From positions 3,200,001 to 3,264,000 of the forward strand of contig CAXXHB010000003.1 in the NCBI GenBank assembly GCA_963664815.2: a DNA stretch of 64,000 nt, read 5' to 3'. The notes beneath the pieces were generated by a model. The model was not told the origin of the DNA, ran no database searches, and saw nothing but the letters and a program-made list of their open reading frames with translations. Below are positions 1-12,717 of this stretch, in pieces. The position numbers and the translations under genes are program-made. Source of the stretch: Spirochaetota bacterium (GTDB lineage: Bacteria > Spirochaetota > UBA4802 > UBA5550). Position 1 is the first letter of the stretch. Every line of letters begins with the position of its first letter.

Positions 1-536
1 CCATTATCATCCTTTTTATATATTGATTTACCATTTGTATCTCTTTCACGCTCTTGTAATATTTGATCAATATTTGTCGTAGCTGAATAGTCTGTATATA
101 TCGTGTTAAATTTAAATTCAGATGCTTTTGAATAAAAAAATATTATTTGATGAGAATTTAAAAGTCCTTTTTTAGAATTAGACCATCTTTTATAAGACCA
201 AACTATTTCACTTTGAAAATTTTCAGTTTGAAAAACTTCATCTAATAAAATTCTTATATAATGTGATGCAGTTTTATCACAATGCAAAAAAACCGAACCA
301 GTATTTTTAAGTATTCGATTACATTGGATCAATACTTCTTTAATTAAAAATGTATATTCATCAATTGAATCAAATTTATCATCAAATTCGTATATCTTTG
401 AATTATCACGATTTGCTAAAGAATGCTTTTTCTGAGTAAAAAATGGTGGATCAAAATAGATTAAATCAATTGACTCAGAATTTATTTCTAATAATTTTTC
501 TAAGCAGTTACCATGAATAATTTTATTTGTTTCCAT
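1..536 (-). CDS. Site-specific DNA amino-methyltransferase (N6A/N4C family), 3' end runs off window
   Basis: Manual translation from ATG 536: METNKIIHGNCLEKLLEINSESIDLIYFDPPFFTQK...ILKNTGSVFLHCD...EIVWSYKRW; DPPF catalytic motif; overlaps the stop of the adjacent endonuclease. Confidence 0.85.
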   Translation of the reverse strand, partial: METNKIIHGNCLEKLLEINSESIDLIYFDPPFFTQKKHSLANRDNSKIYEFDDKFDSIDEYTFLIKEVLIQCNRILKNTGSVFLHCDKTASHYIRILLDEVFQTENFQSEIVWSYKRWSNSKKGLLNSHQIIFFYSKASEFKFNTIYTDYSATTNIDQILQERERDTNGKSIYKKDDN

Positions 537-1161
537 TATCGGGAGTCCTTTCATTAGCTATTTCTATTAAAATCTTTTTAAGATCAATACCTGTGTATTT
601 ATATACATAATTCCAAGCCTCGTCACCAACATAATATTCTCCATTCACCGCCGAGTAAAGTGTCTTAAGAGTTTCCTGGATTTTAATAGCTTGAGCTCTT
701 TGGGGATAATAAAACATAACCCGTATCGGCTTATAACCCTGATTTTGTATAACTTTTACCCTCGTGTGTTCTTTTGTAATATGATCTCCATCAGTTGTCG
801 CATCTCGCCATTTTATTTCTATTGCATCATTACCATTTAAAAAGTCAATTTCAAATGTTTTTGGTCTTTGACCAATTGTATTGTTAATCTTTGTCTTTAT
901 ACCATCAGGAAATTTATAATTAAAACATAGTGTAGCTGCTTCCCCTAAAAATGAACCAGCATATTTATATAAAAATCGACCGGTATTTTGATAAACATCA
1001 ATCAGTTTGCCTTCTTTTGATGTTATTCCAAGAACTCTATATATTAAATAATATGAATTATCATCATTATTCATCTCTTTTTTTCGTTGTTTAATTTTTT
1101 TATTGAGCTCAGATGCGTATTTTTCAGCTAATTTAATAATTTTGTTTTTTAATTCGTCCAT
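523..1161 (-). CDS. ApaLI-like type II restriction endonuclease
   Basis: LIYRVLGI...YQNTGRFLYKYAGSFL...EID...EIKWRDATTDGDH resembles the RE_ApaLI family; translationally coupled to a methyltransferase. Confidence 0.75.
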   Translation of the reverse strand: MDELKNKIIKLAEKYASELNKKIKQRKKEMNNDDNSYYLIYRVLGITSKEGKLIDVYQNTGRFLYKYAGSFLGEAATLCFNYKFPDGIKTKINNTIGQRPKTFEIDFLNGNDAIEIKWRDATTDGDHITKEHTRVKVIQNQGYKPIRVMFYYPQRAQAIKIQETLKTLYSAVNGEYYVGDEAWNYVYKYTGIDLKKILIEIANERTPDNGNK

Positions 1162-1280
1162 ATATTTCTTCCAAATAAATATTTCTTAGCCCGGCACAGA
1201 AGCCGAGCTTCTTTAAAAGGGCATGGGGGTTGTATTTTTTCAATTATTTTTCTTCAAAAACAAAAAGATTGGCTTCCCAA

Positions 1281-1460
1281 GTCTGGTAGGTCGGGGAGTT
1301 TGCACCCCCTTTCCCCCATAAGAACCGTACGTGAAAGTTTTACCACAGGCACTTCCTCCGGTCGCCCTTCATACGGCTCAAGCAGTCTTAAGCTCTCTAT
1401 TCAACCAGCCGCTGTTATCTGTTTTTATTCCCATTTTTCTATAGTAGAAATAATCAGAAT
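1281..1460 (-). mobile_element. Group II intron 3' remnant (end of IEP, domain V, domain VI), copy 1
   Basis: Minus strand GAGCCGTATGAAGG...CTTTCACGTACGGTTC (DV, 1379-1322), then DVI ending ...GACCTACCAGAC; closely matches 8805-8983. Confidence 0.85.
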
Positions 1461-1623
1461 AAAAGTATCCCTTCATGGTCTTTTTATAGTTCCATAATCA
1501 TAGTATTAATATATAGATAATAATCTACAACTGCTCTGGTTATCCGGTAATGACTGATACTTCAGCGGTTCAGGAATCTCTTTCACTACAAGCCTTCCGG
1601 TTTTACATGCAGTGCAGCATGAA
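1448..1623 (-). mobile_element. Degenerate IS91-family transposase 3' fragment (element B, copy 1)
   Basis: Similar to 6284-6460; remnant of the CCxACKTGRL zinc-ribbon tail. Confidence 0.6.
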
Positions 1624-1731
1624 ACGCGACAGCTTTTTACATCAGCTATGGTAAGGCATTATACATGTCACGGGTAAAAGTTATTGCACATCCTGTATGA
1701 AGAGTTTCATACGGCCTGGCAGGAGTCAGTA

Positions 1732-2595
1732 TTATTCTTTCGCCCCTGCTTTTTTAAGTATATCAACAATTTCAGAATAACCTTTCTCTTTCGCTATCTC
1801 TGATGCAGAATAACCCATGGCATTGTCTTTAGCATTGACGTCTGCACCTTTACTGATCAGCAGTTTTACAGCTTCAATATCTCCTGATTCTGCAGCATTA
1901 AACAGGGCGGTAAATCCATCCCTGTCTCTGGAGTTAACATTGGCTCCCCTGCTAATTAGCAGTTTAACTATTGTTATATTTACAGGATTGAACAGTCCTG
2001 ATGTGACATACATCAGGACTGTCTTGCCTTCATTATCTTTAGCATTGACATCTGCACCTTTATCCATCAGGATTTTAAAGATTTCAGTATTATCATTTTT
2101 TGAAGCGGCATACATCAGGGGATTGCATCCGTGGTCATCTTTTGCATTAACATCTGCTCCCTTGCTGACCAGGAGTTTTATAATTTCAGTGTTCCGGTAT
2201 ATTACCGAATATATTAAAGGTGTTTTACCTGAAATAGTTTTAGCATTTACATTCGCTTCATGGTTGATGAGGAGCGCGGCTATTTCTGTATTTTCTTTTT
2301 CTATAGCTACTATCAGGGGTGAGTAGCCTGAAGCTGTTTCGGGATTAATACCGGCGCCGTTACTTATAAGCAGCCTGACAATTTCTGTATTTTCTTTTTT
2401 TACAGCGAACATTACAGGTGTCCATCCGCCATCAGCTTTGTAATTGACATCCGCGCCTGCCGAGATTGTTGCCCTGACATCTTCCAGATTCCCGCTTTCT
2501 ACTGCATCAAGCAGTTTCCGATTCAGATCGTTGTTCTTCGCATATATTGCGTTTGCGGCCAGGCATATAAGAGTGATAATAAAAAAATTTTTCAT
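1732..2595 (-). CDS. Secreted ankyrin-repeat protein
   Basis: Signal peptide plus multiple G.TPL..A.....EIV.LLI..GADVNAKD repeats; GGAGG RBS. Confidence 0.9.
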   Translation of the reverse strand: MKNFFIITLICLAANAIYAKNNDLNRKLLDAVESGNLEDVRATISAGADVNYKADGGWTPVMFAVKKENTEIVRLLISNGAGINPETASGYSPLIVAIEKENTEIAALLINHEANVNAKTISGKTPLIYSVIYRNTEIIKLLVSKGADVNAKDDHGCNPLMYAASKNDNTEIFKILMDKGADVNAKDNEGKTVLMYVTSGLFNPVNITIVKLLISRGANVNSRDRDGFTALFNAAESGDIEAVKLLISKGADVNAKDNAMGYSASEIAKEKGYSEIVDILKKAGAKE

Positions 2596-2654
2596 AAACG
2601 GAGTCCTCCGTATATCATCGGGTACATAACGGGGTTTGTATTATAAATCCGGTA

Positions 2655-2790
2655 TTATTCATTCGGCATTTCATTCATTTCAAGTATTGTTTTCCAGTTT
2701 CTTGCTGTAGATATAGGGCTTAACTTTTTTTCTATATAAGTACCGATGAATTCGGACCTTACTGCTCCATCTTGATAATATATGCAGCCG
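2655..2790 (-). pseudogene. C-terminal fragment resembling DUF1697 family
   Basis: YIEKKLSPISTARNWKTILEM matches the T.RNW.T C-terminal motif; no plausible N-terminus. Confidence 0.45.
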
Positions 2791-2850
2791 ACAATCATAG
2801 TCCGGCTGCAAGCACTTCTTGTAACCTGTTTTATATATTTAACTGCATAG

Positions 2851-3404
2851 CTAAAAAGCCCTGATAGCCCTGACCCATCCATCATCACATTCGTTTATCA
2901 TAGCGCCGCTCTGAACTCCGGTACTAAAATACTGGCCTATCGCGTAATTGTAACCATCATCAGTCGAGCTCCAATAGAATTCTTCGCTAAGTCCTCCGAC
3001 TTTTGCTTTTTCAAATTTAAATACATTAAATTAAGTTCATCTTTCGATGGCAAAAACCAGTCATTTTTCCCACCTCCGCGATAATCGGCACATAGCCTTG
3101 CCGCTGAATTAACTGTGCCGCAGTTTTGTAATGCAGACCGGGTATTGCTTTTTCCTGTCCCTATTGCTGTTCCATTAGCGCCGGATTTAGCGTCACCGGA
3201 ACAACCCCATATTGTATGTTTACTCTGGTCTTCAGGTGCAGCTTCCAAATAACGCCATCCATCGGTATATTTACCCTTGTCATAAAATATCCAGCCGCCG
3301 GCGGAGCCTTTACTCCTGAGTTTATATACTTTTTCCCCTGCACAAATATCAGAATAAAAAAACAGCATCAACATTAAAGGTATAAACATCAAAAACCTTT
3401 TCAT
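2851..3404 (-). pseudogene. Frameshifted DUF1566/C-type-lectin-fold secreted protein, paralog of 7124..7696
   Basis: Starts MKRFLMF (ATG 3404, GGAG RBS); one base missing in an A-run near 3008-3012; the other frame continues VGGLSEEFYWSSTDDG...WVRAIRAF* ending at 2851. Confidence 0.75.
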
Positions 3405-3664
3405 AATACTCTCCGGATTCTTTATAATGAGAATATGAAACATTGAATTTAAAAAAATTTCAAGTTTTTTCTTTCTCATTCCAGCAAAAAAGAAAGTTAC
3501 AACATCCAACTCCTTTAGCAGTCATATTAACTTATATATCAAGTAAACTTCGATAAATCACAGAAAGTAAATACGAAACTCGCTGGAGTTAACGGGACAG
3601 ATTAGAACTTATCGGTAGATCGAATCAGTAATCTTCTTGATAAAAAGTATTCAATACGCCCTTT

Positions 3665-3800
3665 TTAAATTAAATCAAGGAACCTTCTGAACTTGATGTC
3701 CGAATCGCTGGTATGCTTCATCAACCAGTCATATAGGAAATCGAGCAACTCAAAGGAGACGACCAGCCCCCCTTCATCGAACTGGCTCTTCAGTTTCACC
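3665..3800 (-). pseudogene. Bacteriohemerythrin C-terminal fragment
   Basis: VKLKSQFDEGGLVVSFELLDFLYDWLMKHTSDSDIKFRRFL* (WL..H....D motif); cut off by the IS91-like remnant. Confidence 0.6.
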
Positions 3801-3804
3801 AAAA

Positions 3805-4082
3805 AGGACACATTCATTATATCCATGGCCTGACCGCTTACGGTTAGCTGTTATAATGAAGTTTAGCTGTACTGCACAGATTTTAAAAACTGTTTCATAG
3901 AGAGGATAAGTATGTCCGGAGCATTTGAGATTTTTCATAAAATCGCCATTCACAGTCTATCAGATAACTGTAAAAATAATTATTTTACTGGATTATTATT
4001 TCCCCTGGTAAAATCACCGGATTTTTACTGTATGTTATTTCAAAGATCGGGATAAAACGGTATTCAAATTCCTATATATACT
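3805..4082 (+). mobile_element. IS91-family element A 3' end with oriIS-like motif (copy 1)
   Basis: Near-identical to 9736-10007; GGTATTCAAATTCCTATA at 4059-4076 resembles the IS91/IS801/IS1294 oriIS terminus and is followed by GTTC at 4083. Confidence 0.75.
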
Positions 4083-4101
4083 GTTCGATCCCAGTGGTTT
4101 C

Positions 4102-4226
4102 GTCCAACAGAGTCTTAACATAGCTGCTGTCTGAAGATTGAAATTATCTGTTTAATGTTTTTATACTGCTAATAAATATTAGCGGTTTTTTTGAGGCAAC
4201 TACGTTAAGACTTCTATAAGTTAAAT
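4102..4226 (+). other. attC-like recombination site linked to IS91 element A
   Basis: GTCCAAC-ag-AGTCTTAAC...GTTAAGACT-tctataa-GTTAAAT inverted-repeat architecture; near-identical copy at 10027-10151. Confidence 0.7.
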
Positions 4227-6170: not shown

Positions 6171-6555
6171 CGTATGTAGAAATTTGAATAAATAAACAAT
6201 TGCTTCTTTATAACAACCAATATATCTGCTTTTAAAATATACTGTTAAACGATACTTTCCGGAATAAATTATAAGTATTTCTTAATAATCAGAATAAAAG
6301 TATCCCTTCATGGTCTTCCTACAGCCACCACAATCATAATACATCAATATGCAGATAATAATATACAACCGCTCTGGTTCGCTGGAGGTGAACGATACCT
6401 CACCGGTTCAAGAATCTCTTTTACAATAAGCCTTCCGGTTTTGCATGCAGGGCAGCATGAAAGATTTTTACCTGTGACACGCAGATAGATTTCACTCCAT
6501 GTCTGCGGTATACTTTCATTCTTCTTTTGAATTTCGTAAAACTCGCGGCATGCCT
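6171..6555 (-). mobile_element. IS91-family element B 3' end (transposase tail plus oriIS-like motif), copy 2
   Basis: Encodes ACREFYEIQ...TGKNLSCCPACKTGRLIVKEILEPVRYRSPP (zinc ribbon and RxPP tail); TATTCAAATTTCTACATACG at 6190-6171 resembles oriIS. Confidence 0.7.
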
Positions 6556-7123: not shown

Positions 7124-7696
7124 ATGAAGAAAAATGTTTCATCAGCAGTTTTAGTAATGGTTCTGTTAATGTTTGCAGGAACAGGAGTTTTATTTGTAAG
7201 CGAAAGTAACGCGAAGAGTAAGACATACAGAATAGGAGATAAAGGCCCTGCAGGAGGCTGGATATTTTATGATAAAGGGAATTCTTCTGATGGATGGCGG
7301 TATTTAGAAGCCGCACCAAATGATCAGAGCGCTGAATCAGCGTGGGGCTGTTATGAAAAATCAATTCCCGGTGCGCAAGGAACAGCTATTGGAACGGGAA
7401 AAACCAATACTGCAGTAATAATTGGAAGCTGCGATGAATCAGGAATAGCAGCTAAAGTCGCAGCTGATTATCGTGGCGGAGGAAAAAGCGACTGGTTTTT
7501 ACCATCTGATGATGAACTGAATCTGATGTATCATAATTTGCATATAAAAGGAATTGGCGGTTTCGCCGAAGGCGACTATTGGAGTTCGTCTGAGGGCCCT
7601 GCGGACGGCGCGGCGAAACAGAATTTCATCGCTGGCGGTCATGACTACTACAATAAGGTCATGACGTTAAGGGTTAGGGCTGTCCGGGCTTTTTAA
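7124..7696 (+). CDS. DUF1566/C-type-lectin-fold secreted protein (possible DGR target)
   Basis: GPAGGWIFYDKG...DWFLPS.DELNLMY...YWSSSE...VRAVRAF; N-terminal signal/TM segment; AGGAG RBS. Confidence 0.8.
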   Translation: MKKNVSSAVLVMVLLMFAGTGVLFVSESNAKSKTYRIGDKGPAGGWIFYDKGNSSDGWRYLEAAPNDQSAESAWGCYEKSIPGAQGTAIGTGKTNTAVIIGSCDESGIAAKVAADYRGGGKSDWFLPSDDELNLMYHNLHIKGIGGFAEGDYWSSSEGPADGAAKQNFIAGGHDYYNKVMTLRVRAVRAF

Positions 7697-7711
7697 CAAT
7701 TTTTCACAGGG

Positions 7712-7901
7712 CAACCGCTCTGGTTCGCCGGAGGTGAACGATACCTCACCGGTTCAGGATTCTCTTTCACTACAAGCCTTCCGGTTTTGCATGCAGGGCA
7801 GCATGAAAGATTTTTACCTGTGATACGCAGATAGATTTCACTCCATGTCTGCGGTATACTTTCATTCTTCTTTTGAATTTCGTAAAACTCGCGGCATGCC
7901 T
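7712..7901 (-). mobile_element. IS91-family element B transposase tail, copy 3
   Basis: Near-identical to 6366-6555 and broken at the same GCGGCATGCCT point. Confidence 0.7.
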
Positions 7902-8777: not shown

Positions 8778-8804
8778 TTACTAACTCCTAAAGTTTTAGC
8801 GATA

Positions 8805-9190
8805 GTCTGGCAGGTCGGGGAGTTTGCACCCACTTTCCCCCATAAGAACCGTACGTGAAAGTTTTACCACAGGCACTTCCTCCGGTCGCCCTTCATACGG
8901 CTCAAGCCGTCTAAAGCTGATTATACAACCAGCCGCTGTTATCTGTTTGTATTCCCATTTTTCTATAGTAGAAATAATCAGAATCTTCTTTTAAAAATGG
9001 GTTCCTGTCAAGACTTATCATTCTGTGTCGTACAATTTTAATGTGTCCCGCAGTAATGAGAATCTCCTCATCAGAGCAGAAAGTTTAAGTACTGGTTTTT
9101 AAGTCATAAAGAATTTTTCATCGGGTGTCTGAATCTGCCCCATATCCATAGAGCCTGAAAAAGAACAGTATCGAGTTTTAAAGGCTACCT
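8805..9190 (-). mobile_element. Group II intron 3' remnant (degraded maturase domain X, DV, DVI), copy 2
   Basis: Frameshifted LDTVLFQALWIWA.FRHPMKN...GHIKIVRHRMISLDRNPFLKEDSDYF; DV at 8903-8846; ends ...CCTGCCAGAC; no endonuclease domain. Confidence 0.85.
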
Positions 9191-9772
9191 TTGACATTCA
9201 TGAAAATGCTTTTATTCCACCTCGGCAAAGAACTTAAAAACGGTTCTTTAAAGACACCTGACGGCATTGAAAATATTGCAAAGCTTTTTAATCAGCTTGC
9301 GCATATTCCATGGGTTGTAAACTCCCAGCCTCCCGGCAAAGGTAAAAAGAAACCGGTAAACATAGTCCGCTATCTTTCGAGATACGTTGCTAAAAGTGCA
9401 GTCAGTGATAAACGGATACAGAAAGCGGAGAATGGAAATGTTTACATCCGCTATTACAATAGAAAAAGGAAGCAAAGTAAAATTGAGGTTGTTACAGAGA
9501 TTCAATTCATGAAACGTCTGGCACTGCATATTCTTCCTAAAGGATTTAAAAAAGTCCGGTTCTTCGGTTTTATGGCAAACCATAACAGGGCAAACAATCT
9601 TGCCCTTTGCCGGATGTTTCTTGGTCAGCCTCTGGCAGAACAGTATGAGCAGAGCAAAGAGCTTCCTGATGATACGGCTTTCCTGTTCTGGAAATATTTC
9701 AGGATTGATATAACTCTCTGCAGGGAGTGCGGAAGAGGACACATTCATTATATCCATGGCCTGTCGACTTAA
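9191..9772 (+). pseudogene. IS91-family (Y2) transposase, N-terminally truncated (element A, copy 2)
   Basis: PWVVNSQPP, YLSRY (YxxxY), HILPKGFKKVRFFGF and C-terminal CRECG; HUH and N-terminal zinc domain absent. Confidence 0.85.
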
Positions 9773-10007
9773 GGTTAGCTGTTATAAAGAGTATATCCGC
9801 ACAGATTTAAAAAACTGTTTCATAGAGAGGATAAGTATGCCCGGAGCTTTTGAGATTTTGCATAAAATCGCCATTCACAGTCTATCAGATAACTGTAGAA
9901 ATAATTATTTTACGGGATTATTATTTTTTCCGGTAAAATCACCGGATTTTTATTGTATGTTATTTCAAAGATCGGGAGAAAACGGTATTCAAATTCCTAT
10001 ATATACT
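9773..10007 (+). mobile_element. IS91 element A 3' non-coding end with oriIS-like motif
   Basis: GGTATTCAAATTCCTATA at 9984-10001, followed by GTTC at 10008. Confidence 0.75.
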
Positions 10008-10026
10008 GTTCGATCCCAGTGGTTTC

Positions 10027-10151
10027 GTCCAACAGAGTCTTAACATAGTTGTTGTCTGAAGATTAAAATTATCTGTTTAATGTTTTTATACCGCTAATAA
10101 AGATAAGCGGTTTTTTTGAGGCAACTACGTTAAGACTTCTATAAGTTGTGC
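10027..10151 (+). other. attC-like site linked to IS91 element A (copy 2)
   Basis: Same as 4102-4226 up to the G|TT, then diverges (GTTGTGC versus GTTAAAT). Confidence 0.7.
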
Positions 10152-10172
10152 GAAGAACACGAATTAATACTA

Positions 10173-12181: not shown

Positions 12182-12320
12182 AACTAACTTCAGAATTTTT
12201 TTTGCTTTTCCCGGAAATTTTTTAAATTCTTCTGTTTCAGACGTATTAATGTTATGTAAGGATGCCGGGGGGAGCATTATAACGCGCTATCGATAATCCA
12301 CATCAGTCCCATTACCGCTC

Positions 12321-12717
12321 CTCCCGGTTTCCTTAACTACACCGCTCCCCGGGTGTTTTTAAGTGAAACGAGAAATGTCCCGAGGGGATCACTACCGGAA
12401 AACTGTTTTCTTAAAACATATTAATAATATCAATCTTTGAACACGATTACAGGATTTAAGGATTAACGGGATTTTCTGCAGAGTGAACAGACATCAGGAC
12501 AGGTGCTCCCTGCATATCTCTTTGATACTGTTCGTAATGAAATATTATCAATATGCCCGTGTCAGCTATGAAACCGCATCTTCAAGTTTCTTAAACCACA
12601 CCGTTCCCCGAGTGTTTTTAGTGAAACTGGAAATGTATCGAGGGGATCACTACAGGATCTCCCGGTTTCCTTAACCTCACCGCTCCCCGGGTATTTTTTA
12701 AGTAAAACCGTAAATGC
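12321..12717. repeat. Three copies of a ~78-bp repeat (12321-12399, ~12581-12657, 12659-12717 partial)
   Basis: Core CCTTAAC..CACCGCTCCCCGGGTGTTTTTAAGTGAAAC..GAAATGT..CGAGGGGATCACTAC.GGA. Confidence 0.75.

Follow-up and report, generated by a model that had tools for sequence, protein, structure and literature searches.

Expanded group II intron domain V hairpins at the 3' end of an IS91-derived composite repeat in a Spirochaetota genome

We analyzed a 64,000-nt stretch of contig 3 of a Spirochaetota genome (the window), in which two group II intron domain V (DV) hairpins, w1 and w2, bear an expanded terminal loop. These hairpins are probably DV-DVI tails of a lineage of compact ORF-less introns in which an arm replaces the DV tetraloop, and all that is left of them in this genome forms the 3' terminus of a composite repeat. 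The window copies themselves are non-functional intron tail pieces carried by a transposon-derived repeat, not introns. Elsewhere, a small lineage of ORF-less introns, structurally complete, has the expansion as a conserved trait. No part of a group II intron is more conserved or more constant in size than DV, which corresponds to the U6/U2 catalytic helix and whose tetraloop docks with a receptor in domain I.

Expanded hairpins and the composite repeat that carries them

The 58-nt minus-strand DV described in the initial annotation reads back identically at both sites (Table 1), and its assignment to group II introns was borne out by a search with the Rfam model RF00029 (Intron_gpII), which matches w1 (1281-1381, minus strand, 50.8 bits, E 4.9e-07) and w2 (8805-8905, minus strand, 43.0 bits, E 4e-05). 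Both matches span the full model (positions 1-77), with 27 nt occupying three model loop positions, and both score above the Rfam gathering threshold for DV-DVI. The AGC triad, the 2-nt bulge and both DV stems, including an upper stem of 5 bp, are intact. Domain VI and the 3' terminus are also present, aligned to model position 77 of 77, and a putative branch adenosine can be assigned from the model. The 4-nt GNRA-type terminal loop of a 34-nt DV is absent from w1 and w2, where a 28-nt loop region is found instead. The excess over a 4-nt loop is 24 nt, as originally described, but the stretch that had been bracketed as a 24-nt insertion actually measures 28 nt. RNAfold predicts a stable structure for the expanded DV (-26.0 kcal/mol, z -4.5; 1 of 200 shuffles equally good), in which the lower and upper stems are followed by a 3x4 internal loop (GCG/AAAA) and an extension hairpin of 4+3 bp with an AAGUG cap, in agreement with the earlier proposal that the insert can form its own stem. 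The 181-nt block around the hairpins is 95% identical between w1 and w2, so that the flanks do differ while the DV does not.

Table 1. Features of the window that relate to the expanded domain V hairpins
Feature	Position (nt)	Strand	Remarks
Expanded DV, copy w1, 58 nt	1322..1379	minus	28-nt loop region replaces 4-nt loop
Expanded DV, copy w2	8846..8903	minus	sequence identical to w1
Linker, domain VI and intron 3' terminus, w1	1281..1321	minus	exact repeat end; Rfam match 1281-1381
Linker, domain VI and intron 3' terminus, w2	8805..8845	minus	Rfam match; G006 homology resumes at next base
Conserved 3' block P3b, w1	1280..1460	minus	only last 113-136 nt or so intron-like
Passenger DNA between the ends of w1	1461..3801	minus	three same-strand ORFs, 2.3 kb
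Ankyrin-repeat protein, 287 aa, passenger in w1	1732-2595	minus	99-111-nt DNA periodicity is a direct-repeat family
77-aa ORF, passenger in w1	2655-2888	minus	
190-aa ORF, passenger in w1	2937-3509	minus	weak Lcl_C match
5' end of w1	3802..4223	minus	P5 3917-4223 plus first ~110 nt of transposase-remnant block (3802-3914)
Complete long composite repeat w2, 1351 nt	8805..10155	minus	
Blocks of w2	P5 9842-10155; transposase remnant 9193-9841; P3a 8985-9192; P3b with DV-DVI 8804-8984	minus	
193-aa ORF, C-terminal fragment of IS91-family Y2 transposase	9191..9772	plus	antisense to intron tail

All-against-all comparison, BLAST and MAFFT alignment revealed that DV-DVI forms the 3' end of a composite repeat of 0.7-1.4 kb, whose opposite end is that of an IS91-family element. 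The long form (1351-1414 nt; w2, c1966 and c1368, with c3198 truncated at its 5' end) consists, in order, of the P5 block of ~315 nt, ~650 nt with an antisense Y2 fragment, a ~230-nt spacer and the 181-nt DV-DVI block. The 193-aa ORF of w2 matches the Pfam family Y2_Tnp with an E value of 1.7e-25 over profile positions 52-180 of 183. No copy of the repeat holds an intact Y2 (HUH) transposase: the gene is truncated in the long form and deleted in the short form (714-779 nt; c3691, c2565, c2545 and c3686), which lacks the transposase part at a single common junction. The copies are co-oriented on contig 3 and clustered at about 1367-1396, 2534-2566, 3193-3210 and 3686-3692 kb. Of 60 related genomes, 13 also contain P5, and in one of them (G016) it sits just downstream of an intact 381-aa Y2 transposase; on both grounds, P5 is the end of an IS91-type element. 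In relatives, no intron-tail block was found in the 16 loci compared.

The outer boundaries of the repeat are sharp. In all eight complete elements, the repeat ends at the last intron base, and no target duplication is visible at any of the eight. Genome G006 is 97% identical to the DNA beside w2 up to the base just beyond the last intron nucleotide and carries a different, 120-nt palindromic element at the w2 position. Because this identity breaks exactly at the intron terminus, the 3' boundary of the repeat is the intron 3' end. An empty site with both flanks was not found. Two of the copies, c3691 and c3686, have a common 5' flank, which points to segmental duplication of these two and not to transposition.

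The intron-derived part of w1 and w2 is confined to the last ~113-136 nt, namely the end of domain IV, DV and DVI, as judged by alignment with true members of the intron lineage. Upstream of either window DV there is no RT ORF, no intron-encoded RT/maturase in a domain IV was found near the copies, and the three RT matches of the whole genome are all away from DV copies. Searches of three element loci with the D1-D4 models gave no match at E values up to 1; the sole match among the four loci scanned is an unrelated full-length intron in the fourth locus, just outside the window. RF02012 has no match in the whole genome. A GUGYG-type 5' end with domains I-IV contiguous with DV is absent from the window copies and from the genome elements.

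In the genome as a whole, 15 complete expanded DVs were counted, all within the composite repeat; one further copy (c2539) is truncated inside the insert, and two of the 18 copies (c1368 and c2565) have a 4-nt loop and no insert. The mean pairwise difference among 13 tails is 0.118. The exact insert window, at 0.082, ranks 23rd of 152 for low diversity, and the lowest 28-nt windows, at 0.054, run from the distal insert into the DV 3' strand. The signal, modest in size, could mean that the tail is more than a mere passenger. The tree of the 13 tails is star-like, with one of ten inner branches supported, and a single origin of the two insert-less copies is compatible with it (p-AU 0.32). Since c1368 is of the long form and c2565 of the short form, two events or recombination are suggested.

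A second repeat family was also noticed in the window, with pieces 83-96% identical at 1449-1624, 6284-6555 and 7689-7901. One of its copies adjoins the w1 intron-tail block and has the first ~12 nt in common with it, which suggests recombination at microhomology at this junction.

Insert-bearing introns in other genomes and metagenomes

Relatives were sought with the insert pattern in 122 genomes of the order, in 401 genomes sampled from the phylum, and in viral and metagenome contigs. Within the order, the pattern occurs in two of the 122 genomes, this one and G051, which belongs to another family; the same two were recovered among the 401. Viral contigs gave no match, and six metagenome contigs matched, five with DV-DVI and one (L052) by chance. 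The insert is therefore found outside this genome, as the initial annotation had proposed to check, in G051 and five metagenome contigs, in each case within DV. In four of these five contigs, RF02012 (group-II-D1D4-7) matches about 420-610 nt upstream of DV, which leaves no room for an intron-encoded protein (IEP). The intron in L055 starts with GTGCG and spans ~910 nt. That in L053 is ~710 nt long; its 5' end deviates from the canonical one, and some copies may therefore be in decay. Three different 3' flanks were found among the insert-bearing metagenome introns. L054 matches the L053 copy in its 5' part, flank included, and the L050 copy in its 3' part, likewise with the flank; the contig was probably assembled as a chimera over the repeated intron.

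These findings bear out the earlier interpretation only in part. An intron lineage that tolerates an extended DV is real, with members in metagenome contigs and in one genome from another family, but the argument for its mobility that had been drawn from the window was wrong. A full-length copy, which had been recommended as a check, is present among the metagenome contigs as structurally complete, insert-bearing, ORF-less introns, whereas this genome has none.

In G051, a contig (C2) bears the insert with one base changed, in an intron that is cut by the contig start. The same genome has a D1D4-7 intron (L080) encoding an IEP of 483 aa with RVT_N, RVT_1 and GIIM domains; it is the only IEP-encoding relative found, and its DV is canonical. 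ORF-less relatives in G046 carry a 4-nt GAAA loop atop the same upper stem, and the relatives L025 and L081 have, like L080, a 4-nt DV loop.

Comparison of L017 with L053 gave 269 of 419 identical positions (64%) over the aligned 3' halves and 27 of 28 in the loop region; judged by this alignment, the insert and the DV core are equally conserved over a divergence of 36%. Among 16 sequences, one pair of the DV upper stem is A-U in 14 and reversed to U-A in two. In the extension hairpin, none of the seven pairs has changed on both sides. A search of L053, L055 and L017 for a long-range pairing partner of the insert gave none: as many as 64, 35 and 33 of 300 shuffled inserts formed duplexes as good as the best ones, and the targets differ among the three introns.

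Expansions of DV are otherwise rare. The 19 RF00029 matches in the order that we inspected as longer than usual or related all have a 34-nt DV, and in those that exceed the model the surplus length lies in DVI. A generic pattern with a consensus lower stem and an enlarged interior, searched in the 122 genomes, returned this genome's three consensus copies and two chance matches, one of which (in G058) lies inside a 565-aa ORF. In viral contigs, the enlarged-DV pattern had no matches, as against 73 canonical 34-nt DVs with the same stem.

Among contigs of four public runs that map to L055, the DNA run X1 covers 30 of 30 bins; contigs from RNA runs cover short parts only, with no joint at the intron boundaries. 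We also observed that a short palindromic sequence, with TTAGC or TTAGTC at its end, precedes the ORF-less introns (L055 ~95-110, L081 ~1990-2010, L053 ~340-355), and its occurrence in three contexts hints at a hairpin-type homing site.

Origin of the repeat and alternative explanations

In the explanation that we favor as probable, the source would be a lineage of compact ORF-less group II introns of the Rfam group-II-D1D4-7 type, in which the DV tetraloop was replaced by a 3x4 A-rich internal loop and a ~21-nt hairpin arm. Selection would maintain the insert in the living lineage. Considering the predicted fold together with the known tetraloop contact, G15 and A40-A42 of the loop may keep a GNRA-like A-rich face for docking of DV to domain I, with the new arm pointing outward as a peripheral addition. 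This genome no longer holds a complete intron of the lineage, and the last ~113-136 nt persist in a non-autonomous repeat that runs from the IS91-family end through an antisense Y2 remnant, a deletion or passenger genes, and the ~230-nt spacer to the intron tail. Such a repeat may have arisen when an IS91-type element was joined to an intron copy and internal deletions then left the composite. It would have spread as a unit, either by rolling-circle (IS91-type) mobilization in trans or by recombination within arrays, with the intron tail as a passenger or surrogate terminus that has no ribozyme role. The composite nature of the repeat is supported by its defined ends, the Y2_Tnp fragment, the recurrence of P5 in relatives, the clustering, the lack of target duplication and the exact boundary in G006. 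Nevertheless, several observations weigh against this explanation. The sole IEP-encoding relative found is canonical in its DV, compensatory changes are absent from the extension hairpin, and the genome's one intact Y2 transposase locus has no DNA similarity to the remnant in the repeat. In addition, simple rolling-circle read-through does not explain why the repeat ends at the intron 3' end.

The initial annotation had taken the different sequences downstream of w1 and w2 as two different 3' exons, and thereby as a possible sign of intron mobility. These differences come instead from the spread of the IS91-derived composite repeat. That the window holds two live ORF-less introns homing into different sites would fit the unlike downstream sequences, the identical DV and a DV-DVI score above the Rfam threshold, but we give this idea almost no credence: there is no GUGYG-type 5' end, the DNA upstream is an IS91 end with a transposase remnant, and the D1-D4 scan of the elements, the lack of any RF02012 match and the tail-only similarity to introns contradict it. 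It is likewise very improbable that the 24 nt began as an independent small unit, mobile or repeated, and entered the DV loop from elsewhere, although the insert folds as a hairpin and its presence or absence is clean, both between the insert-less copies c1368 and c2565, with a perfect 4-nt loop on the same stems, and the other copies, and between the introns of G051 and G046. When the 28-mer was searched in the 5.2-Mb genome, all 14 matches of at least 20 nt lay inside DV, and the remaining matches were of 12-13 nt, with E values around 1-4; this confinement to DV rules out a dispersed mini-repeat, which had been the second possibility raised at the outset. The single metagenome match outside DV (L052) has no intron context and is in line with the one or so expected by chance for 20 specified bases, and viral contigs, as noted, gave none.

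A further possibility, which we hold only tentatively, is that the intron tail has been co-opted as a functional terminus, either as a surrogate end for rolling-circle termination or as a recombination site. The stable DV and DVI hairpins would then be a recognition structure, and the tail would be selected in this genome for a role at the DNA level; we regard this as possible but less than likely. All eight complete elements end at the last intron base, in agreement with the G006 comparison, the copies are co-oriented in arrays, the ends of w1 enclose 2.3 kb of passenger genes, and the lack of visible target duplication is as expected of the IS91 family. The least variable 28-nt window, covering the distal insert and the DV 3' strand, also speaks for co-option (0.054 against a mean of 0.118 in 13 copies). 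However, the exact insert window ranks only 23rd of 152 in this respect, DV pairs are disrupted in several copies, an empty site with both flanks was not found, and the 5' flank common to c3691 and c3686 points to segmental duplication. A broader proposal joins such recruitment of the tail as a transposon terminus to the idea that the arm is a selected modular addition to DV, with its A-rich internal loop in place of the docking tetraloop and a new peripheral helix that would contact RNA or protein, which might serve folding or the trans mobilization of protein-less introns and might have been cleanly gained or lost more than once. We consider this proposal as a whole to be doubtful. The tail of a compact ORF-less intron, preserved as the end of the composite repeat, remains the explanation that we prefer.

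Comparison with known systems and neighboring elements

Bacteria seldom carry ORF-less group II introns, according to the accessible part of a review (PMC4424553). The relatives in metagenomes, G046 and G051 resemble the introns described there in being compact (~0.7-0.9 kb) and composed of D1D4-7, DV and DVI with no IEP, and the related IEP-encoding intron in G051 could act in trans, as that text describes. They differ from those introns in that a 24-nt expansion replaces the DV tetraloop. The window copies themselves are 3' tails only. A survey of ORF-less introns by RF00029 (PMC8919778) makes no mention of DV insertions in its accessible text.

Introns of the B.c.I4 type, of class B, have a 3' extension called domain VII, as set out in the accessible parts of three papers (PMC1865049, PMC2691827, PMC4424553), and likewise carry a lineage-specific structured addition at the 3' catalytic end in several copies. 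Their addition follows DVI and shifts the 3' splice site, whereas the one described here lies inside the DV terminal loop and is known from sequence alone. Truncated introns have also been described in integron cassette arrays and CALINs (PMC7923331, in the portion available), where intron fragments similarly occur among co-oriented small cassettes near mobile elements. IEP-encoding IIC/IIB introns at attC sites gave rise to the fragments in those arrays; the one described here is joined to an IS91-family end and has multiplied to about 18 copies, in a genome with no integron integrase above the cut-off.

IS91-family elements are rolling-circle insertion sequences with one-ended transposition, and the lack of a target-site duplication is a hallmark of the family. 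The composite repeat shares with them a Y2 transposase remnant, a conserved end common to intact elements in relatives, the lack of target duplication and the capture of adjacent DNA. In contrast to them, its transposase is truncated or absent and its far end is an intron tail in place of a recognized terminus.

In the literature searched, we found no description of a natural lineage with a 24-nt arm in the DV docking loop that is as tightly conserved as the catalytic core. Should these introns splice, nature would have supplied a test of how far the contact between DV and domain I can be remodeled, and it would follow that surveys keyed to a 34-nt DV or to an RT gene can miss ORF-less lineages. 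The window also holds a warning for annotation: a DV-DVI match above the Rfam threshold may be a fossil tail that was multiplied by another mobile element.

Further elements were noted around the repeat. The ~120-nt imperfect palindrome in G006 (L156:2096-2215), exactly at the w2 position, shares its first 8-9 nt with P5. Partial copies of it lie on contig 3 at 1970096-1970211, 2567619-2567718, 3697537-3697630 and other places, one of them just upstream of a gene pair for a tyrosine recombinase and a Y2 transposase (contig 3, 3695386-3697429). This palindrome may be an attC-like or IS-end-like site, and the arrays may be a recombinase-driven cassette system; the best match to the integron integrase model TIGR02249 scores 126 bits, where the cut-off is 265. 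Another group II intron (L007), apparently full-length and of a different structural type, lies just outside the window, on the minus strand of contig 3 from 3194618 to about 3197000, with a match to RF01999 (D1D4-2, 116.6 bits), a 413-aa frame with RVT_1 and a canonical 34-nt DV. Directly downstream of w1, a restriction-modification pair (window 3-1161, minus strand) comprises an ApaLI-like endonuclease (523-1161, minus strand; Pfam E 1.5e-92) and, cut off by the start of the window, an N6/N4 DNA methylase. Farther along, in the stretch 12310-12698 of the window, a 51-nt unit occurs three times and a 43-nt unit twice, spaced ~79-259 nt apart.
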